Source: a virus
Taxonomy: Duplodnaviria; Caudoviricetes
Virus record (IMG/VR): IMGVR_UViG_3300020044_005488
Coordinates: 1 to 29,198 of that record
Direction: 5' to 3' (one strand)
Length of the DNA stretch: 29,198 bases
Shown here: positions 2,685-28,625 of the stretch, piece after piece
Layout: every line of letters starts with the position of its first letter
How positions within the stretch are numbered: position 1 is the stretch's first letter
The notes under the pieces: generated by a model
Told to the model about the DNA's origin: nothing
Database searches by the model: none
The model's input: the letters and a program-made list of their open reading frames with translations, nothing else
Position numbers and translations under genes: made by a program

Positions 2685-3743
2685 TTAACATGATAACGTT
2701 TTTGAACAATTTATTTTTCGCAATTGGGCTTCAACAAACCATTGATTCCCGACCTCGTTATTTTTAGGAATTTCGCCGTCCGAAATATATTCAACGCCGT
2801 TGACATAAACATTTTTCGCGGCCAAAATATTTGTCAAAATTTTTGCAATTTGACGTGGAATTCGTTTTGATTTCAATGTCCATTTTTCAATGACTTCCGA
2901 CGAAACCGTTGTCAATCGCGTTCCGACAAATTCTTTTGCAATTTCAAACGATGTTTGTTCGATAAATCCTGGCAAACGATATTGATTGTAAAATGTGAAC
3001 GGTGTTCCGTTTCCAACGAATTCGTCACCGTAATAATATTTGAAACAATCGGTTGTTTTGTAGTTACCTTCCAACATCAATGTTTCGGATTTGTCCGGAC
3101 ATGGATCGAATTTGTAAGGTTCCGAACAAAACGAATATTTTGAAACCGGATTTGCCGCGTTGAACCACCATTCAAAAACAAAACACCCGCCGCCGTTTGG
3201 AAATTGCGCGTTCAAATCAATGTATAATTGCTTTAAATCAATTTCGATTTGCTGAATATTTTTCCATGTAATATTTCCCGCGTAATCATAAACCGGGAAA
3301 ACACCGACAAATTTATTTGACGCGTAATTCGTCACCGATTTTGGATTGCCACCTGACATGATATATTGATCCGAACAACAATCTTTGACAAATCCATTTG
3401 CAAAACCGGTCGGTCCCCAACCATACGGAAACGAACCGTTCGGATCTTGACCGTTGAAATTGTCGATTTGCTGAAATTGAAAAACCAAAATGTCTTCATC
3501 TAAAACCGGCGACCAATACGGCAAATCATTTCCGCAAAGATTGCAATTGAACGATGTATCACATGAACACAATGTCAAACCGTTATTCACAACAACTGAA
3601 TCGCAATCGTCACCGTTTCCGCAAATCAAAATTTCTATTTCTTTGCAAATGATACGTGATTCAATGTCGTCAATGTCGCCACAATCCGACGATTGGTCGC
3701 AATATGTTTTTGAATTGATTGAATAGTTTACAAAATAACCCAT
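2685..3743 (-). CDS. Cys-rich structural (tail-associated) protein
   Basis: 352 aa with about 17 Cys, in the tail gene run downstream of the tape measure gene. Confidence 0.6.
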   Translation of the reverse strand: MGYFVNYSINSKTYCDQSSDCGDIDDIESRIICKEIEILICGNGDDCDSVVVNNGLTLCSCDTSFNCNLCGNDLPYWSPVLDEDILVFQFQQIDNFNGQDPNGSFPYGWGPTGFANGFVKDCCSDQYIMSGGNPKSVTNYASNKFVGVFPVYDYAGNITWKNIQQIEIDLKQLYIDLNAQFPNGGGCFVFEWWFNAANPVSKYSFCSEPYKFDPCPDKSETLMLEGNYKTTDCFKYYYGDEFVGNGTPFTFYNQYRLPGFIEQTSFEIAKEFVGTRLTTVSSEVIEKWTLKSKRIPRQIAKILTNILAAKNVYVNGVEYISDGEIPKNNEVGNQWFVEAQLRKINCSKTLSC

Positions 3744-3752
3744 GTTTATTTT

Positions 3753-6581
3753 TTATGGTTTTTTTAATTGAACACCGCAAATTTGATATTTGCCAGGCGA
3801 CAATAAAGATAAATCAATTTTAAAGAATGCCGAACCACCCGAAAACGTCGGGTTGACGTCGTATAATTCCGGACATGATAATTGTGTCAATCCGGTTCCG
3901 CTTGTACCGCCGTTTTCCTCTAACAAGTTATTGACGCCATAAGGGAAACGATCCAACATTGCAATAAACGTGTAATTTGCCGCAACTAATTGTTGAACTT
4001 CAATCAACAAATAATCAAATTGACCGTCGCAAAACGGACCGGTAACATTTGACGGTGTTCCGTTTTTATATCCTTTGACGCTTATTCCTTTTAACATTTG
4101 CGAATAAGGTTGCGGATTTGTTTCATAGTCAACCGGGTGAATTTTGTTGTTTCTTACAATTGTAAAATCACATGATTGACCATAAATCGGTGACAAATCA
4201 AAGTCAAATTGATATTCAAAATAAACGTCTAAATCGGCCCAATCAAAATTCGCGTTGTTTACTGAAATATAGGTTGACGCCAACGCCCCCGCCGGATTTC
4301 GTGTGAAACCTTGCGCCGTATTTGCAACGAAAACATTCCCGTTTGAAATTGGCAAATTTGGTTCATAACGAACACGCCCGTTCCATTCCGTTGACAATGT
4401 TGTTCCGTCGTCACTCACAATCAAATCCGAACTATTGTTTTGCCAATTGCCAGGAAAACCCGCAATTCGATTTGAAGACATTGAATAAAAATAAAAAAAC
4501 GTTGTTTGTCCGGTTGACGGATAATTGTTCACCTTTCTGTAAACATTCAATGTGACTTTTTTCAAAAAATCAATCCATGTGTTTGCCGGATCCATTCCAA
4601 AATTTGTCAAACAAATATCAAACGCGCCACCGGTGATTTGCATTTTGTTTTGAATTCGTTCTTTCATTGTTGGCGCAAAACATTGATTGACGAATGACAT
4701 TGAATAATCATTCCACGTATTTGAATAAGTCAATGAACAACACAATTCAATTCCTGGAATTTGCGTCACCGGAATAATGTCCGAAATAAAAGAATTCGAA
4801 ATCGTTATCAAACCACTAACGCCGTAAACAATCGCACCAATGCGCCATTGTCCGTTTGGATTGATTGAATTATCAATGTAACATGTAACGCGCCATGTCG
4901 AACCACCCACGTTCGTAATTAATGTTGACGGCGCATAAATCAAATTATTCAATTGACCGGGTGTTGCGTCGGTCGGAATTGCAATTCGTGACATGTCGTA
5001 ATTCAACGGAAACGTTGTTGTGTTATCTGTTTGACTTGTATCAAATAACATGATGTAACAATCCCATAATGTCGAAATTGAATCAATTTCAAAAATTAAT
5101 TGCGTTTGTTGAACGGTTGACAAATTAGAAACAAAAACACCGTTGCGTTTGAATTTGAATTGTGGATTCGTAAACTCTGACGCGCCACCGTACAAACCAG
5201 AATTCCAAAAACGCGATGTCCAACCGATTGATTTTGTCAAATAACAATTAAAATCGACGGCTTGTCCATTCACAATTGTTTGAACATTTGAATCGGTGAT
5301 GTAAGTCATCAAACACAAATTTTTGTTTGAATTATAAACCGATTGAATTGTGTTTGTCAACGGTGTTGGTGAACTAATATGTGAATTCAACAACTTTGGT
5401 TGATTTGGAATTGTTGTTCCGTCAATCCAATTTTCAAGGTCTTCAATCATGAAAAAATTCAATGTGATAATGAAATTTGTATTATCAACAAATTGAATTG
5501 TCGCGTTCAAATTCTTTTGTGAATTTGCATTCACACCCGCGCCATATAAAGTCATTTGATACAACCCACCAATTAACGCGTTTGAATTCAGGTCAAAAAA
5601 CCAACCTGCCGGTGGCGGCGAATCAATAATTCCGGAACCATAACGTCCTGGATAGTTGCAATTGATGTCAAATAAAACCGGATTGAAAAATATTTTCACA
5701 CCCGCTTGTAAATTAACATAAGTCATGGTCCATTGCAACGAAACACTTGCGCCAATGCTTATTCGGTCAAATAAAACAGACGAACCGCAATTTCCGATTT
5801 GTTGAACCCACCCACCGTCGGAAAAAATATTCAAATAACGACATCCAATTCCACAATCACCGCAATAGACCGGTTGATAATAAACTAAAACATTGTAGGT
5901 TTCACCGCAATTTGTGACATCAAAATAAAAAATATCACCGTCACTCATGTCCAACGGACACGTTTGAATTCCGACTTCATGTTCACCCGGCGGAATAGGC
6001 AATGAAACGCCCGTTCCCGAACCAGACGCAACGCCGTCAATAAACCAATTGAGCGCACCGGTAAAAAATGAAATCGTTGAAAATCCAACATTGACCGTGA
6101 ACGGCGTTGGATTGTTCACTCTAAAAAAGTCACCTTGTAATTTCGTGCAATCGTCTAAACATGGATGCCAATTAAATTGTGTTTGCGAAATGATTGGATT
6201 TGTGACCGGATCAATATTAATCATGTCAAAGGTCCATGTTTGCGAACCGCTTCCCGGCGAATTCCAATGAACTTCCAACTCAAACGATGTAACGTGACCA
6301 ACGGCCGCGTCACAATCCGCACAAACCGACACCAAACATGTGATTTCATTCAATGAATTCAATGTGATGTTATATGTCAACGGATCGGTCCATGCAACGC
6401 CGTCAACGCTCAAAATTTGCGTCGAACAACCGCCGGTGTTATTTATATGGATTCGATGTATTGAACGCGTCGGTTCGTTCGTGTTCAACTTTACTTTTAT
6501 TTCAACCAAACCACAACAACCCGCAAAAATTGGATTTGTCGCGCCGGAACTGTTATCAACTAAATTCGATGTGATTATCAT
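3753..6581 (-). CDS. Large beta-rich, Cys-rich tail/baseplate or receptor-binding protein
   Basis: 942 aa rich in N/T/S/G and aromatic residues, about 27 Cys, second gene after the tape measure gene. Confidence 0.6.
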   Translation of the reverse strand: MIITSNLVDNSSGATNPIFAGCCGLVEIKVKLNTNEPTRSIHRIHINNTGGCSTQILSVDGVAWTDPLTYNITLNSLNEITCLVSVCADCDAAVGHVTSFELEVHWNSPGSGSQTWTFDMINIDPVTNPIISQTQFNWHPCLDDCTKLQGDFFRVNNPTPFTVNVGFSTISFFTGALNWFIDGVASGSGTGVSLPIPPGEHEVGIQTCPLDMSDGDIFYFDVTNCGETYNVLVYYQPVYCGDCGIGCRYLNIFSDGGWVQQIGNCGSSVLFDRISIGASVSLQWTMTYVNLQAGVKIFFNPVLFDINCNYPGRYGSGIIDSPPPAGWFFDLNSNALIGGLYQMTLYGAGVNANSQKNLNATIQFVDNTNFIITLNFFMIEDLENWIDGTTIPNQPKLLNSHISSPTPLTNTIQSVYNSNKNLCLMTYITDSNVQTIVNGQAVDFNCYLTKSIGWTSRFWNSGLYGGASEFTNPQFKFKRNGVFVSNLSTVQQTQLIFEIDSISTLWDCYIMLFDTSQTDNTTTFPLNYDMSRIAIPTDATPGQLNNLIYAPSTLITNVGGSTWRVTCYIDNSINPNGQWRIGAIVYGVSGLITISNSFISDIIPVTQIPGIELCCSLTYSNTWNDYSMSFVNQCFAPTMKERIQNKMQITGGAFDICLTNFGMDPANTWIDFLKKVTLNVYRKVNNYPSTGQTTFFYFYSMSSNRIAGFPGNWQNNSSDLIVSDDGTTLSTEWNGRVRYEPNLPISNGNVFVANTAQGFTRNPAGALASTYISVNNANFDWADLDVYFEYQFDFDLSPIYGQSCDFTIVRNNKIHPVDYETNPQPYSQMLKGISVKGYKNGTPSNVTGPFCDGQFDYLLIEVQQLVAANYTFIAMLDRFPYGVNNLLEENGGTSGTGLTQLSCPELYDVNPTFSGGSAFFKIDLSLLSPGKYQICGVQLKKP

Positions 6582-6600
6582 GTTTCAAATTTATTTAAAA

Positions 6601-8337
6601 TTAAACAATTCCCGCAACTTGGATCACTCTTTTTGTGAAATCAATATTTAATTCTTTGACAACGCCGTTGACAATTTGCCCGTTTTTAATTAACCGAATT
6701 GTTTTGGCAAAATTAAAATCATTGTATGTTTGACAATCAAATTCAAAAGTAAATTTAAAATCGAATTGCGTCGTTCCTGGCAACCTTGGATCGTCGATGT
6801 AATGAAACAACGAATAAAGATTGTTTTTGTAACTTGCATTGAACCAAAACGGATAATTGAAACGTTCGTCGGGTGCTGGTCCCGGATAACCACCACAAAA
6901 CGCGTCGGAATAGTCATGTTTAACCAAACCGGCCGTTCCTGAATTTGTGTCATAAATCATGAATTTATAATAACCGACTGTATGTTGATTGGTTAACAAT
7001 GTTTGGTCGTAATCTGAAAAAATATTGTGCCAAATGAAATTCACGATTCCACCTAAAAACGTTTGAAAATAATCATAAACGGTCAAATCAATTCCGTCCT
7101 TTCGATGTCGTGACGGCCCTATTTGCAATAATATTTCGCGTGAACCTTTTTGTCCTGGGTTATAGGGAACATTCCATTCGACAATGTCATTGAATCTTGT
7201 TATTGATTCGTTTCCAACATAGTCAACAAAATCTTTTGAATATTGATAATCGCCATAGGACCAACGTTCCTTGTCAATCCAATTAAAACAAATTTCATTG
7301 TTTTGAATTTTACCTTCATTCAATAATTGTTCAACGTCAATCCATGTCGTTGTTGTTTGAAAAAAATCCTTTCGTTCAAAAACCAAAACATTGTTGACAA
7401 TTTGAAATTCGGCATTGAAAATCGGTTTCAAATACGTTTGCATTAACGTTTCAATTGTTTCAATTGGTTTGTTGTCCGAAATCAATGTGAAATCGTTTGA
7501 ATCATACGGACGGCCCTTTGCAACTTGCGCGGCAAATAATACCGTGTTGTAATAAGGTGACGACGGATCATTTAGAATTGAACTTTGAAATTGCAATCCA
7601 CATTTTTCACATGCGTTTTTTATATAGTCACGAACATACGGTGACGGGTGAAAACGACCGCACGGTGCTAATGACGCGCTTAAATCTGTTAATAAATGTT
7701 GAATGTTATTTATCAATGTGATTGGATTTGTTAAACCACCGCCGCAATTAACGTCAACACGTGGAATTGAATTAATAGCCGAACAAATAACATAGACAAT
7801 CCCAAAAATGACAAAAATCACCGGAACCAAAACGAAAAAAATAAATTGAAACGTGAAATTCCAAATTGTCGCTTGTAAAATTAACGCGTATTGTAAAAAT
7901 TCCGGACGTACTTCAATGCAATAACGAATGATTGGATTTGAACGATTCAAAAATCCGTTGTGATTGTCCCAAATTAATGTTGATTTGACGCAATTGATTT
8001 TCGCTTCGTCTTCAATCACATTTGCTGAAATAAAACATTTGGGTTCACACCAATCAATCGCGTCGCCTTTGATAACACCTTCGAAAACCGCTTCGCGACA
8101 ACAATCGTCAAAAATTTTGATTGCAACGCTTTTTGAAAATCCGAATGGATCGTCAATCAATGCCGTTTTTAAAATTTGATAACCGTCATCGTAAAATGTC
8201 AATTCAGATGTGAACGATTTCGCCAATGTTCCGTCTTCGGCACGGTTCCGCAATGTGACCGAAAAATTTTGAATGCCGTCAATCACCCCGGTGACCAATG
8301 TCCCGTTTAATTCAATTCGCATTGTTGAATTTGCCAT
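6601..8337 (-). CDS. Tail tip/hub-like protein with an internal hydrophobic segment
   Basis: 578 aa directly after the tape measure gene; contains a ~40 aa hydrophobic run FLQYALIL...VYVICSAI. Confidence 0.6.
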   Translation of the reverse strand: MANSTMRIELNGTLVTGVIDGIQNFSVTLRNRAEDGTLAKSFTSELTFYDDGYQILKTALIDDPFGFSKSVAIKIFDDCCREAVFEGVIKGDAIDWCEPKCFISANVIEDEAKINCVKSTLIWDNHNGFLNRSNPIIRYCIEVRPEFLQYALILQATIWNFTFQFIFFVLVPVIFVIFGIVYVICSAINSIPRVDVNCGGGLTNPITLINNIQHLLTDLSASLAPCGRFHPSPYVRDYIKNACEKCGLQFQSSILNDPSSPYYNTVLFAAQVAKGRPYDSNDFTLISDNKPIETIETLMQTYLKPIFNAEFQIVNNVLVFERKDFFQTTTTWIDVEQLLNEGKIQNNEICFNWIDKERWSYGDYQYSKDFVDYVGNESITRFNDIVEWNVPYNPGQKGSREILLQIGPSRHRKDGIDLTVYDYFQTFLGGIVNFIWHNIFSDYDQTLLTNQHTVGYYKFMIYDTNSGTAGLVKHDYSDAFCGGYPGPAPDERFNYPFWFNASYKNNLYSLFHYIDDPRLPGTTQFDFKFTFEFDCQTYNDFNFAKTIRLIKNGQIVNGVVKELNIDFTKRVIQVAGIV

Positions 8338-15539: not shown

Positions 15540-15630
15540 ATTTTAAACAGATAGGACATATTTTGTCAATCCGAATGTCGTAAAAATTTCGACATGTTTC
15601 GCAACAAATCCAAATTTCATGATTGTTCAT
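15478..15630 (-). CDS. 50-aa zinc-ribbon-like protein MNNHEIWICCETCRNFYDIRIDKICPICLK...
   Basis: Hand-translated. ATG overlaps the methyltransferase TGA; two CxxC pairs; C-terminal tail overlaps the next gene by 62 nt. Confidence 0.5.
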   Translation of the reverse strand: MNNHEIWICCETCRNFYDIRIDKICPICLKYEHHQRRNKTVQRIPKYHVG

Positions 15631-16280
15631 ATTTCAAATAATTTAGTTTGTGACGTGTGATTTTTAATTCGCTGAATTGCTTTGTCGTAATATTCCGAAT
15701 CTAATTCGCACCCGGTCAATTCAAATCCGTAATCATGACAAGCAATTGCAATCGAACCGGAACCAATATGAGTGTCCAAAATTTTGTCACCCGGTTTTGA
15801 ATAATTTTCTAAAATCCATTTGTATAATTTAACAGGTTTTTGTGTTGGGTGAATTTTATTATCATAACCCGCTGAAAAATGATGCATTCTAAACATTCGT
15901 GTTGTTCCTTTTATACTTTTCCACGCCAATTCAGCATCGGACATCGGATTTGTGCCATTCATTTTGTCCCATACAATAAAACCGTCGGTTGAACATAAAT
16001 AATCTAAAAAATAATTGCCACCCCAAATGATTTGATTTTTGCTTACCCTTTTTAATTCATTAAAATAATCTTTTTTTGGAGAAATATCCCATTTTTCAAC
16101 TTTATTATCGGATAATTTCTTTAAACTTCCCATTGAACCTTTTCGCCCACCTTTTATCAATCTATTTCCAAGTCCATAAGGCGGATCGACAATTGCCAAA
16201 TCGAAATATTTGTCCGGGTAACGTGACATCAAAACCATATTGTCTTCATTTGTGATTGTGATTTTGTCGGTGATATTCAT
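15627..16280 (-). CDS. DNA N6-adenine/N4-cytosine methyltransferase, beta class (copy 2)
   Basis: DPPY catalytic motif precedes HPTQKP and the DTHIGSGS SAM-binding motif. Confidence 0.92.
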   Translation of the reverse strand: MNITDKITITNEDNMVLMSRYPDKYFDLAIVDPPYGLGNRLIKGGRKGSMGSLKKLSDNKVEKWDISPKKDYFNELKRVSKNQIIWGGNYFLDYLCSTDGFIVWDKMNGTNPMSDAELAWKSIKGTTRMFRMHHFSAGYDNKIHPTQKPVKLYKWILENYSKPGDKILDTHIGSGSIAIACHDYGFELTGCELDSEYYDKAIQRIKNHTSQTKLFEI

Positions 16281-16912
16281 AATTCAAACAATTTAATTTG
16301 TGAAACATGATTTTTTATTCGCTGAATTGATTTTTTATAAAATTCAACGTCAATTTCACATGCGGTTAATTCAAACGAATAGTCGTGACATGCAATTGCA
16401 ATTGATCCGGAACCAAAATGTGTGTCAATTATTTTATCACCTGGTTTGGCATATTTGTTTAAAATCCATTTGTAAAGTTCAACCGGCTTTTGTGTTGGGT
16501 GAATTTTGTTTCCGGTTCGATTGTCAAATTTGAACAATTGCGCGGGACTTTCAAACGATGTCCAACCAATTTCAACTTGACTAAAATTTTCCCATGGTTG
16601 ACATTTGTCCCAAACAATAACGCAACGCGTCGGTTTCAAATTAAAATAATTGCCACCCCAAATGATTTGATTTTTGCTAATTCGAAACAATTCGTCAAAA
16701 TAACTTTGATTTGGTGCAATATCCCAATTGTCAATTGAACCGTTGTTGTAAATTCTATTTTTGAAATCGCCTTTGCCGCCGCTTTGCGCACCCATTTGAC
16801 GCATTCCATACGGGGGATCGACAATTGCCAAATCAAAAAAATTATCTGGAAAACGTGACATCAAAATCATATTGTCTTCGTTCGTCACTTCTATTTTGTC
16901 GGTGATTTTCAT
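16277..16912 (-). CDS. DNA N6-adenine/N4-cytosine methyltransferase, beta class (copy 1; start MKITDK at 16912)
   Basis: DPPY, HPTQKP, DTHFGSGS; ATGA overlaps at both ends. Confidence 0.92.
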   Translation of the reverse strand: MKITDKIEVTNEDNMILMSRFPDNFFDLAIVDPPYGMRQMGAQSGGKGDFKNRIYNNGSIDNWDIAPNQSYFDELFRISKNQIIWGGNYFNLKPTRCVIVWDKCQPWENFSQVEIGWTSFESPAQLFKFDNRTGNKIHPTQKPVELYKWILNKYAKPGDKIIDTHFGSGSIAIACHDYSFELTACEIDVEFYKKSIQRIKNHVSQIKLFEL

Positions 16913-17172
16913 TTTCTGAATATTTTTTGAAACCATGATTTCCGCTTTTTAATAACGGGCAACGCGTATGTTGTCAACTTCAGGCAATCACAAATGAATG
17001 GATAATGCCGTGAACATTCCATTGACAATTGAAAATTGACCGTTTCGCCGGGTGTGAATTCTTTGTTTTTGAAAAACGGATGCAATGGAAATTCGTTTTC
17101 GAAATTCATTTCGTTGATTTCAACCACTACAAATTGACCGGAATTTGTTTGTTCGATCCAACCTTTGTTCAT
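16909..17172 (-). CDS. Hypothetical protein
   Basis: 87 aa, coupled by ATGA overlaps at both ends. Confidence 0.6.
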   Translation of the reverse strand: MNKGWIEQTNSGQFVVVEINEMNFENEFPLHPFFKNKEFTPGETVNFQLSMECSRHYPFICDCLKLTTYALPVIKKRKSWFQKIFRK

Positions 17173-23272: not shown

Positions 23273-23611
23273 TTAGTTTATGTATTGAAAATTTTTTCCG
23301 TATGATCCAATTGACATCCAAACATAATGTGAAGGTTGTGTTCCATAATCGCCGGTTTCAAACCATGTTGTCCCGCGTGACGCGATTTCATAAATCTTTA
23401 AAAGCATTTCACGTTGTTCGCCTTGATAATTTTCAGCAATCCAACATTCATTGATTGTTTTGTAATCAACATTAAAATTGACATTTGATTTTAAAATTTC
23501 AATTCTTACGCCTGAATAATGCTCACGGCAAATTGAAAATTTTGTTTTTGGGAATTGTTTTTTTAATTCCGTTCTAATTTCTTTAACTTGTTGTGTTGAG
23601 ATGTAACCCAT
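23273..23611 (-). CDS. LPD29-like (large polyvalent protein-associated domain) early protein (start MGYIST at 23611)
   Basis: The VKEIRTELKKQFPKTKFSI...YSGVRIEI pattern resembles LPD29. First gene after promoter cassette B. Confidence 0.6.
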   Translation of the reverse strand: MGYISTQQVKEIRTELKKQFPKTKFSICREHYSGVRIEILKSNVNFNVDYKTINECWIAENYQGEQREMLLKIYEIASRGTTWFETGDYGTQPSHYVWMSIGSYGKNFQYIN

Positions 23612-23639
23612 GTTGTTGTTGTTTTTTGAATTATTGATT

Positions 23640-23714
23640 TGCAAATATATGTTAAAATAAATTTAAAAAACAAATATTTTTTAAATTATTTTTAACAAAC
23701 TTTTGTTAATAACT
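23640..23714 (-). promoter_or_regulatory. Promoter/operator cassette B (near copy of A)
   Basis: 75 bp with 6 mismatches to 22975-23049 by hand alignment; same -33/-7 boxes and inverted repeat. Confidence 0.8.
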
Positions 23715-23737: not shown

Positions 23738-24241
23738 TTATATTGAAACCAATGTCCACGATCCGACAACACCGTAATTTTGGCCGCATGTATTGTTCGC
23801 GCAATTAATGAACATTTGTTGGTCAAATGATACCGGAATTCCGCCAAAACTAAATTCAATTTCGTCACCCGGATTCATGGTAATTGTGTAATTCACATTT
23901 GGGATCATAAATATATTGTTGAAATTGTGAATTAAAACAACATTTGGCAAATTGATAAATGTTGAATTTGACCATGAAAAAACCAATTCAAACGGACAAT
24001 TTTGACCATTGACAACATTCAAAAAAATTGGTGGTGTCAAATACGGATTAAAACCACCGGATTGCCAATCACCAACAAAAAATTGCGGCCTTAACAAACA
24101 ATTGCAACCAGGCGGAATCGGTGTTCCGTCGTCTTCAAATTTGGGGCGACAATTGCAATCACAACCGCACGGTTGTTTTGACAAATCGTTTTTGACCTTT
24201 TGACTGATCCGATTCAGATAATTTTTGTCAATTATTCCCAT
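23738..24241 (-). CDS. Cys-rich structural protein (start MGIIDKNY at 24241)
   Basis: PCGCDCNC and GCNC motifs followed by a beta-rich, Ig-like-looking C-terminus. Confidence 0.6.
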   Translation of the reverse strand: MGIIDKNYLNRISQKVKNDLSKQPCGCDCNCRPKFEDDGTPIPPGCNCLLRPQFFVGDWQSGGFNPYLTPPIFLNVVNGQNCPFELVFSWSNSTFINLPNVVLIHNFNNIFMIPNVNYTITMNPGDEIEFSFGGIPVSFDQQMFINCANNTCGQNYGVVGSWTLVSI

Positions 24242-24651
24242 AACAATTTTATAAATATTGTCAAACTCATGTGACTGATAATGATTGCCGGGATTAACAT
24301 CCAAAATGACACGCCAAACGATTGATTTGCGAACGCGAAAATAAAAAACGTGATCCATGTATTGTGACACTGAACGCAACCGCCTAATGGCTTCCAAAGG
24401 AACCCAAACGGATTTTTTGGATTATCGCGAAAATATTTTTCAATGAAATCCATGTAAAACCCGAACACGTTTCCGGGACGATAACAGAATTCTAAAAAAA
24501 ACGACGTCATTGAACTGAATAAACCAATCGCGAACGCTTTTAAAATTAATTCATTCAAATATCCGTCGTCGGACAATTCAGAAATCAAAAATCCAATTGC
24601 GAACGAAACAATCGCAATCAATGTCGGTGTTGTGGTGTCTTTTGGGTTCAT
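24232..24651 (-). CDS. Multi-TM membrane protein with CxxC..W motif (DUF1360-like)
   Basis: Four hydrophobic segments; KPLGGCVQCHNTW at the start of the third. Confidence 0.65.
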   Translation of the reverse strand: MNPKDTTTPTLIAIVSFAIGFLISELSDDGYLNELILKAFAIGLFSSMTSFFLEFCYRPGNVFGFYMDFIEKYFRDNPKNPFGFLWKPLGGCVQCHNTWITFFIFAFANQSFGVSFWMLIPAIIISHMSLTIFIKLLWE

Positions 24652-24652
24652 T

Positions 24653-24967
24653 TTACAAACATGTTTGAACGATTCCGTTTAATTCAAAACAACATGCGCC
24701 GTCGGGCGTTGTCGCGTAATATGAACCGGGTGTTTGCAATGAAACCGGCAATTCAATTTTGACCATTGTTGTTGAGTCCTCGTTGAAAACCATTGTCAAT
24801 TGAATTTGTTCGTTCGGATCAAACGAAATTGTTTGTTCCAAATATGTTCCATTTGTCCAAATGTGAAATGTGAAATCTTCAGGGTTTGACGACCAATTCG
24901 CAAAACCGAAATCAATCGTTTGATTTGGTGCAAAGCAACCAATATTTTTAACGCAACCGCAATTCAT
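24653..24967 (-). CDS. Small Cys-rich beta protein, probably structural
   Basis: 104 aa, 6 Cys (MNCGC...GACC...TCL). Confidence 0.6.
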   Translation of the reverse strand: MNCGCVKNIGCFAPNQTIDFGFANWSSNPEDFTFHIWTNGTYLEQTISFDPNEQIQLTMVFNEDSTTMVKIELPVSLQTPGSYYATTPDGACCFELNGIVQTCL

Positions 24968-24987: not shown

Positions 24988-25545
24988 TCAAAGATAATTT
25001 AATTCAAACACAACGTCAAAGTCAATCGCGACAAAATTCAATGACTTATCAAATTGTTTCGGTTTGGGACTTTCTTCAGTCAATACCGCAATCGCGTCAA
25101 TGGTTGATTTTATTGGTTTGATTTGGATCAATCGAAATTCGTCAAAATCCTGGAATTTAGCCGTCATGAATGCCGTTCGAATAGCATGTTCCAAATTATA
25201 TGAACACCAATTGCGTTGAACGGCCACCAATCGCAATTCATAACGCGAATTAATTCGATTAATCGTTTGACAACTGAATTGACGTGAATTCGCGGATTCT
25301 TCATAAAAAATTTGTCCGTCGTCGCGATGTCTTATGTAAAAATAATTTGATTCGTTGTCGCTTATTCCTGAATAAACAAATTCGTTTTTTGTCGATTCGC
25401 TTTGAATTAAAATTCGCCCCTCTGAATCAATTCGGGCCAAATAAACGGCCTTTTGAAAACCCGGAACCATTTGCAAAACGTAATTTGATAAATTCGACAA
25501 AATTGTGTCGATTGGCGAACAACAATCCGATGTGATTTGTTTCAT
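24988..25545 (-). CDS. Putative tail terminator/completion protein
   Basis: 185 aa after the gp10-like gene; C-terminal beta strand FVAIDFDVVF. Assignment is by position. Confidence 0.5.
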   Translation of the reverse strand: MKQITSDCCSPIDTILSNLSNYVLQMVPGFQKAVYLARIDSEGRILIQSESTKNEFVYSGISDNESNYFYIRHRDDGQIFYEESANSRQFSCQTINRINSRYELRLVAVQRNWCSYNLEHAIRTAFMTAKFQDFDEFRLIQIKPIKSTIDAIAVLTEESPKPKQFDKSLNFVAIDFDVVFELNYL

Positions 25546-27056: not shown

Positions 27057-27572
27057 TTAACAACCGTCGTTTCCTGGTTTCGCGTCTTTGCTTTGAATAT
27101 ATTCGTTTTTATAAACGTCAATTTTTTTATAGAGTAATTCAGCAAAACCGCGTTTGATAAAACCCAACAACGATAAATTTTTGACTAAAGAAATCAAATT
27201 CACCACCACCAACGGAACGAAAATTCCTTCATTCAACCAATAAATCGCGTTTGAACCCTTCGCCAAATTTGTCGCAAATGCCAACAATCCGGTGTGTGAT
27301 AATAACGTCCAAAAAACCCGCGTCGCTTTGCGCGTTTCAAATCTGTTGTTTTTCCATGCAATCCACATTCCCGTGAAATGGTCACAACAAATCAACAACA
27401 TCAACGTGTAATAACTCACCGCAGGATCGAAAATCCAATTTGAAACAAACCCGGAAATCGAACCCAACGTGAACCCGCCAAACACCGACAATGTGAACGG
27501 AACAACTTTCAAATTCAGCGATAACACGGAATCAAAAATTGATTTTGTTTCGCTTATGAAATGCGGTTTCAT
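27057..27572 (-). CDS. Holin (phage holin family 4-like; start MKPHFISE at 27572)
   Basis: TM segments with the LLICCDHFTGMWIAWKNNRFET...NLISLVKNLSLLG pattern and a charged C-terminus. Confidence 0.7.
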   Translation of the reverse strand: MKPHFISETKSIFDSVLSLNLKVVPFTLSVFGGFTLGSISGFVSNWIFDPAVSYYTLMLLICCDHFTGMWIAWKNNRFETRKATRVFWTLLSHTGLLAFATNLAKGSNAIYWLNEGIFVPLVVVNLISLVKNLSLLGFIKRGFAELLYKKIDVYKNEYIQSKDAKPGNDGC

Positions 27573-27667
27573 TTTCCGCGCGGTTTTGACGGACGTTGAA
27601 TTGAACCCGGACGTGGGCGCGAACCGCCACAACTTGAACATGCATTTTTTTGACCTCTTGTTTTCAT
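27569..27667 (-). CDS. 32-aa basic Cys peptide MKTRGQKNACSSCGGSRPRPGSIQRPSKPRGK
   Basis: A-rich leader; ATGA overlap with the holin start. Confidence 0.55.
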   Translation of the reverse strand: MKTRGQKNACSSCGGSRPRPGSIQRPSKPRGK

Positions 27668-27680
27668 GATATTTTTGTTT

Positions 27681-28625
27681 TTATGGTAATCCTTGAATGT
27701 AGCGATTTTGATTGCAAACAATACAACATTCGTCAATTCGACGCAATAATTGCGGCAAACTTTCAATCAACATTTTCATTTGTTTGTCGTATTCAGCCGT
27801 CCAATTTTCTAATAAAAAATTGATTTTGTCGGTGTCCAACAATGTCAATGAATTCAAACGATCCGTTGCAACCGCTTCGTGTAAAATTTCAATTCCTGAA
27901 CGATATAAAATTGGCAAACCTAATTTTGCGCCCAAAATACACGCGAATTCGTCATTGTCACAAACGGCATTCGCCTGAACTTTTATTCCATAGGTTGAAT
28001 TTGAATTTCCCGAACCGTTCCAACCGTATGCGCTCAAATATTGACCGGACTTTGACGAACAACCGCAACCCGTTTTGATTGACGAATTGTTGACATTGAT
28101 TGTTGAATTGTCCATGTAAATATAAACATCTGGTGTTGTCGATGTAAAATTCAAATTGATTTCCGCTTCGCCTTGGGCGTTGGTTGTGAACGAATATTGC
28201 GTTTGAACATTCCCGTCGTCAACCCAAACATCGTGTGTTGTGTTTGCGTTTCCAATTTTTATTTTGATGTTGGTCACGTTAATTCGTAACATGCGCGAAC
28301 GTTTAACCTGCAAATGAACGCCCCTATCAGCGTTTTGAACCGCCAATGAACTATTTGTCCAATCACCAACCGATAATTCGTCAACGATGCTATTTATACG
28401 AAAATAAGGCAACGCGTAACGCGTCAAATCTGAAATCACCAATTTTGTCGCAAATGCGATTTTTTCATTCAGGAATTGTAAACCTGAAATAAAATCCGAA
28501 TCCGCAATGTTCGCGGCATATTTCAAATTTAAACCTTCTAAATCGTTAATGTATAAACCTGACGTTGGTGTTCCGGTTGTCAAACATTTGACACCGATTA
28601 AATTATTTAAACATGTTGGTTGCAT
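27681..28625 (-). CDS. Cys-rich structural protein, possibly a head-tail adaptor with an inserted beta domain
   Basis: 314 aa; helical N- and C-termini around a beta-rich middle; GCGC and ECCIVC motifs. Confidence 0.55.
   Translation of the reverse strand: MQPTCLNNLIGVKCLTTGTPTSGLYINDLEGLNLKYAANIADSDFISGLQFLNEKIAFATKLVISDLTRYALPYFRINSIVDELSVGDWTNSSLAVQNADRGVHLQVKRSRMLRINVTNIKIKIGNANTTHDVWVDDGNVQTQYSFTTNAQGEAEINLNFTSTTPDVYIYMDNSTINVNNSSIKTGCGCSSKSGQYLSAYGWNGSGNSNSTYGIKVQANAVCDNDEFACILGAKLGLPILYRSGIEILHEAVATDRLNSLTLLDTDKINFLLENWTAEYDKQMKMLIESLPQLLRRIDECCIVCNQNRYIQGLP

Follow-up and report, generated by a model that had tools for sequence, protein, structure and literature searches.

A gene whose small membrane product has an invariant CxxC motif proved to be a core gene of an uncultured family of siphophages, in which the putative capsid and tail tube proteins carry conserved cysteines. 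By profile and structure comparison the product is a remote member of an uncharacterised family (DUF1360/phrog_781), and we regard its gene as a well-placed candidate for a variant disulfide-forming system. The gene comes from a linear virus record, the window, which comprises 29,198 bases, is 87% complete and encodes a terminase, tape measure, holin, amidase and RecT (Pfam, PHROG), identifying it as a tailed phage; the holin and amidase genes are part of the same operon as the CxxC gene. The features that are discussed below are listed in Table 1.

Table 1. Positions in the window of the CxxC membrane protein gene and of the cysteine-rich genes discussed with it
Feature	Position	Strand	Remarks
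CxxC membrane protein gene	24232..24651	minus	distantly related to DUF1360/phrog_781; closes the conserved part of the family's virion operon
Invariant C92-V-Q-C95, start of membrane helix 93-112	24367..24378	minus	predicted cytoplasmic side
Cys-rich protein of 104 aa, usual upstream neighbour of the CxxC gene	24653..24967	minus	virion role suggested by position
Putative protein of 185 aa at tail-terminator position	24988..25545	minus	role from position
ORF rich in Cys (9), overlaps the CxxC gene at its end	23738..24241	minus	ATG at 24241
Basic CxxC/CxC micro-peptide of 32 aa with Arg/Lys/Pro tail	27569..27667	minus	predicted partner, shuttle or virion substrate
Putative head-tail adaptor of 314 aa, immediately upstream of the micro-peptide	27681..28625	minus	from position
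Three Cys-rich putative tail-tip genes, predicted substrates	2685..8337	minus	between tape measure and portal-position gene

Conservation and predicted topology of the CxxC protein

The product of 139 residues contains PLGGCVQCHNTW at positions 88-99, with the CVQC motif at 92-95. An AlphaFold2 model based on an alignment of 150 rows (pLDDT 90.9) has long helices at 7-26, 30-56, 93-112 and 116-138 and short ones at 64-75 and 83-91, and the CxxC opens the helix 93-112. A profile search of 1.84 billion representatives yielded 378 proteins at E<=0.001, and the broad alignment consists of 149 of the best 150 of these 378 together with the query; all counts out of 150 refer to this selection. C92 and C95 are the sole invariant positions (150/150), followed by G90 (148/150) and W99 (135/150), while among 38 close homologues C92, C95, N97 and seven further positions are invariant, and H127 is kept in close relatives only. 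As there is no third or fourth invariant ligand, a redox pair would fit better than a monomeric zinc site.

The sequence-only reading had described a four-TM protein of 139 residues with a CxxC at the start of a membrane helix and one additional cysteine in an FCY context. The placement of the motif is confirmed, and both the length and the four long helices of the individual protein agree with the model, but residues cover the first helix in only 14 of the 150 homologues, so that the family core comprises three membrane helices and “four-TM” had to be rejected as a family feature. The additional cysteine likewise exists (C56, the third of the protein) but is present in only 101/150 of the broad homologues and missing from many members of the phage's own family; it was rejected as a required catalytic residue.

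In the broad alignment, K and R residues number 7.0 on average in the loop preceding the CxxC and 0.3 in the one that follows the CxxC helix, and in each of the 150 proteins (best 150 of 378) the CxxC side has the higher number of them. On this positive-inside bias, the predicted location of the CxxC is the cytoplasmic face.

Relationship to DUF1360

The 139-aa protein has no Pfam or PHROG match of its own and lies below the Pfam gathering cut-off, with no match to PF07098 even at E<=0.1, while 5/150 of the homologues (best 150 of 378) match this profile at E<=0.01. Aligned by hhalign to 32 Bacilli DUF1360 ORFs, the broad profile reaches 73% (E 3e-5, 101 columns) with the CxxC and the W in register, compared with 0.2-0.3% for a holin control. 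The value is 96.5% against crAss001 gp97, 27% for the broad alignment against PDS1, and only 2.9% for the close alignment (A2) against Bacilli DUF1360. The top neighbour cluster in the ESM Atlas (0.94) is 42% DUF1360, and the best BFVD match is crAss001 A0A385DTE3 (Foldseek prob 1.0, TM 0.63-0.65), with several DUF1360-labelled models among the BFVD matches. What had been called “DUF1360-like” from the letters alone is, on these comparisons, a remote DUF1360 relative under the curated cut-off; the likeness holds as remote homology but not as a direct database match.

Examples of DUF1360/phrog_781 are crAss001 gp97, PDS1 gp55, mycobacteriophage Aelin gp7 and the Bacilli gene beside cot genes. 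The 139-aa protein has in common with them a small size, a phage virion-gene or spore-coat setting, and the succession of a membrane helix, an amphipathic loop, a second helix opened by CxxC-x-x-x-W and a third helix. It differs in remaining under the Pfam cut-off, in an extra N-terminal helix and in a loop motif of its own. The accessible texts that name DUF1360 give no function for it.

The CxxC gene within its own phage family

The family was represented by 56 IMG/VR loci. Its gene order is portal-position, minor head, scaffold-position, putative capsid, putative tail tube, amidase, adaptor-position gene, micro-peptide, holin, neck-position, terminator-position, small Cys protein and, as the last conserved one, the CxxC gene; most of these labels were assigned by position, PHROG being uninformative for the putative capsid and tube. 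Both of the latter genes are absent from the window itself. The CxxC is kept in all 47 called homologues, the remaining source loci being incomplete or missed in gene calling. Among loci chosen by their putative capsid gene (best 80 of 116), the CxxC gene is present in 33 of the 33 that were informative, in that their sequence continued for 1.2 kb or more beyond the terminator gene (47 of the 80 fell below this length). Since none of these 33 lacks the gene, a contrast within the family is impossible.

Cysteines are unevenly distributed over the virion genes, with 10 conserved Cys columns in the putative capsid (42 sequences) and 8 in the tail tube (39 sequences) as opposed to none in the tape measure, scaffold-position and neck-position genes. 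The 314-aa protein has 8 invariant Cys columns in 50 sequences and no Pfam or PHROG match, the 185-aa protein 4 conserved columns in 49 sequences, and the 104-aa protein, with 6 Cys, belongs to a family found in 42 loci with 5 conserved columns. The three putative tail-tip genes reach 4.8, 2.9 and 2.4% Cys, compared with 0 Cys in the adjoining tape measure. From this conservation we infer that virions of the family contain disulfides. The CxxC gene had been described as flanked by Cys-rich structural genes; both flanks are indeed Cys-rich, but neither has a virion-family match in Pfam or PHROG, so that “structural” is a designation from position. The overlapping ORF, moreover, is missing from the 45 gene families that occur most often in the related loci, and is not family-wide.

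The putative major capsid (340 aa, 10 conserved Cys; L022 2955-3977 and relatives) has no match in PHROGs or the annotated-phage collection, no cultured representative of its family was found, and a search of GTDB prophages gave one weak match of 21 residues. Bacteroidota are a candidate host, suggested by one protein label and by kinship to crAss001 gp97.

Three further observations concern other minus-strand genes of the window. The portal-position protein (996-2678) has a CxxxxC...CxxCxGxG insertion, resembling a DnaJ-type zinc finger, the cysteines of which are more likely metal ligands than disulfide partners. Two tandem, similar N6/N4 DNA methyltransferase genes occupy 15627-16936, and a stand-alone LPD29 (polyvalent-protein-associated) domain gene (23273-23644) lies at the start of the early region.

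The CSSC peptide that had been proposed as a possible shuttle is a genuine element, being a conserved micro-gene. A strict peptide filter, written after these peptides had been seen, detects it in 48/51 family loci and fires in 2/80 random loci. Its motif is CxxC in 25 of 50 family loci and mostly CxC in the others, while the Arg/Lys/Pro tail is always present. In a separate lineage (L055-L057) the micro-peptide directly precedes the membrane gene and follows the terminase and a small Cys protein. A complex prediction for membrane protein and micro-peptide scored 0.00, which gives no verdict either way. Its role may be that of a shuttle, or it may itself be stapled into the shell.

Phages with published virion disulfides

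Inter-subunit disulfides have been described in the tail and portal vertex of crAss001 (PMC10172136), whose gp97 is annotated as DUF1360 and sited away from the virion genes. PDS1, which belongs to the same proposed genus as PD491P1 (PMC10773633), carries a gene annotated as DUF1360 (gp55) inside its tail genes, and the virion of PD491P1 is reported to be almost wholly disulfide-linked (PMC13576161). A scan with PDS1 gp55 found near-identical relatives only, and neither crAss001 nor PDS1 has a micro-peptide by the strict filter.

The virion of Milano is disulfide-networked (PMC10811340). Its whole 68.5-kb genome contains a single ORF combining CxxC and membrane helix (gp4) and a single basic CxC peptide (gp5), and these adjoin each other at 4158/4159 (L062 3913-4287) in the virion gene block, before the terminase; gp4 is kept in 7-7-1 and OLIVR4. 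The available text of PMC10811340 contains nothing that we found about either protein. Milano gp4 has one membrane helix, and its homology is not demonstrable (hhalign 0.06-3.1%, no phrog_781 match), and we treat it as an apparent look-alike of the CxxC membrane gene. As gp5 is annotated as virion-associated, it could be a substrate no less than a shuttle. In Milano the capsid has 2.2% Cys, the sheath 3.2% and the tape measure 0, and this outer versus inner pattern is matched by the uncultured family.

The CxxC-helix motif alone is frequent, with 24 matches in 1.02 Mb of random DNA (~1 per 42 kb); the scan finds 44/51 family loci and misses the window's own protein. Peptide and CxxC-helix filters co-fire in 0/80 random loci. 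The adjacency of membrane gene and peptide recurs in L055-L057. The two filters also co-fire once on the minus strand of the last 5.5 kb of Pam3, a phage with no phrog_781 match and only fibre-baseplate disulfides (Jabs preprint).

Spore-forming Bacilli

Outside phages, PF07098 is found in 89/121 genomes of the order of G252, which was judged to represent spore-forming Bacilli because of its cot genes, and in 5/301 of the phylum of G050. We inspected 32 Bacilli DUF1360 loci (30 of the 89 and two from the search of the G050 phylum) with ~1.5 kb on each side. A short basic CxC ORF lies within 300 bases downstream of DUF1360 in 19/32 and upstream in 0/32, while a Cys-rich CotZ-family gene is a neighbour in 9/32; conversely, 13/32 have no such peptide and 23/32 no CotZ-family gene within ~1.5 kb. 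CotO, CotZ, Coat_X and SpoVIF (Pfam) surround three of the loci, and two small CxC ORFs that were scanned (L359 1917-2117, L361 1860-2027) belong to no Pfam family.

B. subtilis is the one control genome matching PF07098, and we take its DUF1360 gene to be yjcA. According to the accessible literature, yjcA is Bacilli-specific (PMC3533761), adjoins cotV (PMC11708026) and is under sigmaE control (PMC517825). CotY is disulfide-linked and assembled in the cytoplasm, and recombinant CotY lattices cross-link in E. coli, which was attributed to cooperative self-oxidation (PMC4950064).

Comparison with known disulfide-forming systems

Fold searches provided no link to an established enzyme. Foldseek against the PDB yielded nothing at E<=0.001, PDB sequences searched by profile gave nothing useful, and the best VIA-align matches among 48,161 chains (Z 8.1 and 7.2) were to unrelated helical proteins, with DsbB, VKOR and Erv absent among the 50 matches listed; this outcome is compatible with a shared as well as with a different fold. 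The likeness to DsbB and to bacterial and eukaryotic VKOR, from which the sequence-only reading argued, goes no further than a CxxC placed where a membrane helix has its N-terminal end, within a small membrane protein built of helices. In DsbB and VKOR this CxxC faces the periplasm or lumen, whereas it is predicted to be cytoplasmic in all 150 proteins aligned here; their second conserved Cys pair has no counterpart, given that only C92 and C95 are invariant, and the core of the phage protein has three helices. Membership of the DsbB/VKOR group was rejected for the inverted predicted orientation and for the want of that second pair, so that of the original comparison the motif remains.

The likeness to the poxvirus E10/A2.5/G4 pathway concerns the proposed role only, in that the virus itself would encode the means of forming its virion disulfides in the cytoplasm. 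E10 belongs to the Erv family and is a soluble FAD enzyme, and A2.5 is that pathway's analogue for the small Cys-pair partner. The 139-aa protein differs in having hydrophobic membrane helices, no Erv-type Pfam match was obtained for the 150 homologues (best 150 of 378), and there is no G4-like gene in the window, where no thioredoxin-like partner was found among 32 proteins scanned with Pfam and PHROG (record 87% complete).

The uncultured family has Cys-rich outer shell proteins together with a Cys-free tape measure, and cytoplasmic assembly, in common with the virions of Milano, Jabs, PD491P1 and crAss001 and with the CotY/CotZ crust; it differs from these systems in that its disulfides are deduced from conservation only. 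The accessible literature on these five systems was found to name no catalyst for their disulfides.

Proposed function and alternative explanations

Of several possible explanations, we favour one in which the CxxC protein is a cytoplasm-facing thiol oxidoreductase, probably an oxidase, for shells that are assembled inside the cell, and we give this about an even chance of being correct. Dithiols of virion proteins would give up electrons to the CxxC, either directly or by way of the micro-peptide, and the CxxC would hand them on to an acceptor in the membrane, for which quinone is a guess by analogy to DsbB and VKOR. The stapling of capsid, connector and tail would take place just before lysis or while it proceeds, and crust or exosporium proteins would be treated likewise by the Bacilli copy in the mother cell. 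The broader proposal, that DUF1360-type proteins and basic CxC micro-peptides are the two parts of a disulfide-forming system that faces the cytoplasm and has a new fold, common to tailed phages and Bacillus spores and representing the missing catalyst for virion disulfide networks and the cross-linked spore crust, is put forward more tentatively, at somewhat below an even chance. The original suggestion that the protein may oxidise virion cysteines gains from the genomic setting, namely an invariant CxxC, the core status of the gene in a family whose virion cysteines are conserved, the occurrence of the gene or a look-alike in crAss001, PDS1 and Milano, and the micro-peptide that accompanies it in several unrelated settings.

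Several observations count against the oxidase reading. Equal occurrence of homologues in phages with Cys-poor virions, which the sequence-only reading had named as evidence against it, is borne out in part, by one lineage with a homologue among Cys-poor virion genes: a random sample (the 49 longest records of 120 loci) contains two records with a phrog_781 match, none of them among the 11 near-complete ones, and both (G013 and G020) represent a single T4-like lineage and are 24-29% complete. There the gene lies between the portal (3 Cys in 655 aa) and the prohead protease, the fibre-like ORFs have 0-0.3% Cys, and these partial records yielded no micro-peptide and no capsid gene. As a separate observation, many small ORFs of this T4-like phage (L348-L349, G013) open with a repeated basic leader of the type MKITNxQLxQIIKEEL. 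Further points against are the fibre-baseplate disulfides of Pam3, formed with no phrog_781 match in that phage; the Bacilli loci without peptide or CotZ-family gene; and the missing peptide of crAss001 and PDS1, the position of gp97 off the virion genes and the weak homology of Milano gp4. The self-oxidation of CotY also counts against it, as does the suggestion of the Jabs authors that oxidation occurs during or after lysis (Jabs preprint).

One alternative explanation dispenses with any catalytic role. Shell disulfides would form spontaneously in ordered lattices or upon exposure to air, the CxxC would bind a metal, possibly zinc shared between two copies or with the CxC/CxxC of the peptide, and the protein would be a membrane anchor or an accessory of assembly or lysis. 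Disulfides can arise spontaneously (PMC13576161) and CotY lattices self-oxidise (PMC4950064), and the homologue amid Cys-poor virion genes, the holin and amidase genes in the same operon and the virion-associated annotation of the Milano peptide all agree with it. However, it leaves unexplained why the gene is repeatedly sited by Cys-rich shell genes, in phages and in spore formers, and there are only two invariant ligands, H127 being confined to close relatives. We consider this explanation unlikely, though the most probable of the alternatives.

A redox role in the opposite direction appears improbable to us. Such a protein would hold Cys-rich subunits reduced, or reshuffle wrong bonds, until assembly, with the final oxidation being spontaneous, and it would account equally for the invariant cytoplasm-facing CxxC and for the same neighbourhoods. 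It would also suit early expression in the mother cell, if yjcA is the DUF1360 gene; sigmaE control implies such timing for yjcA, by the text cited above (PMC517825). Against it, electrons would need to be brought in, and a second Cys pair that could do so is lacking. Moreover, the cytoplasm already possesses reductants of the thioredoxin/glutathione type, so that an additional membrane reductant would be less needed than an oxidant.

Finally, we regard it as very improbable that the neighbourhoods are partly coincidental and that small CxxC membrane proteins of several separate origins, each with its own part in host interaction, have been lumped, as might be read from the low direct scores (5/150 for PF07098, 2.9% for A2 against Bacilli, 27% for PDS1 and at most 3.1% for Milano). 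Against such lumping, the broad profile aligns with Bacilli DUF1360 at E 3e-5 with CxxC and W in register and the DUF1360-labelled BFVD matches and the ESM Atlas cluster (0.94, 42% DUF1360) point the same way.

Significance

As far as the accessible texts go, no phage-encoded disulfide machinery has been described (PMC13576161, 2026), where virion disulfides come from is still being asked (Jabs preprint, 2026), and the formation of spore-crust disulfides in the mother cell has itself been posed as a question (PMC4950064). In the literature searched, which comprised few subscription papers, we found no proposal of a disulfide-forming role of this kind for a phage, for yjcA in the spore or for yjcB in the exosporium. 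The analysis names candidate genes in culturable systems, namely gp4 and gp5 of Milano, gp97 of crAss001, gp55 of PDS1, and yjcA of B. subtilis with its downstream peptide. If the favoured reading is true, these phages and spore formers would possess a membrane thiol oxidase of inverted orientation, DUF1360 would acquire a function, and the system might possibly serve as a tool for disulfide formation in the cytoplasm.
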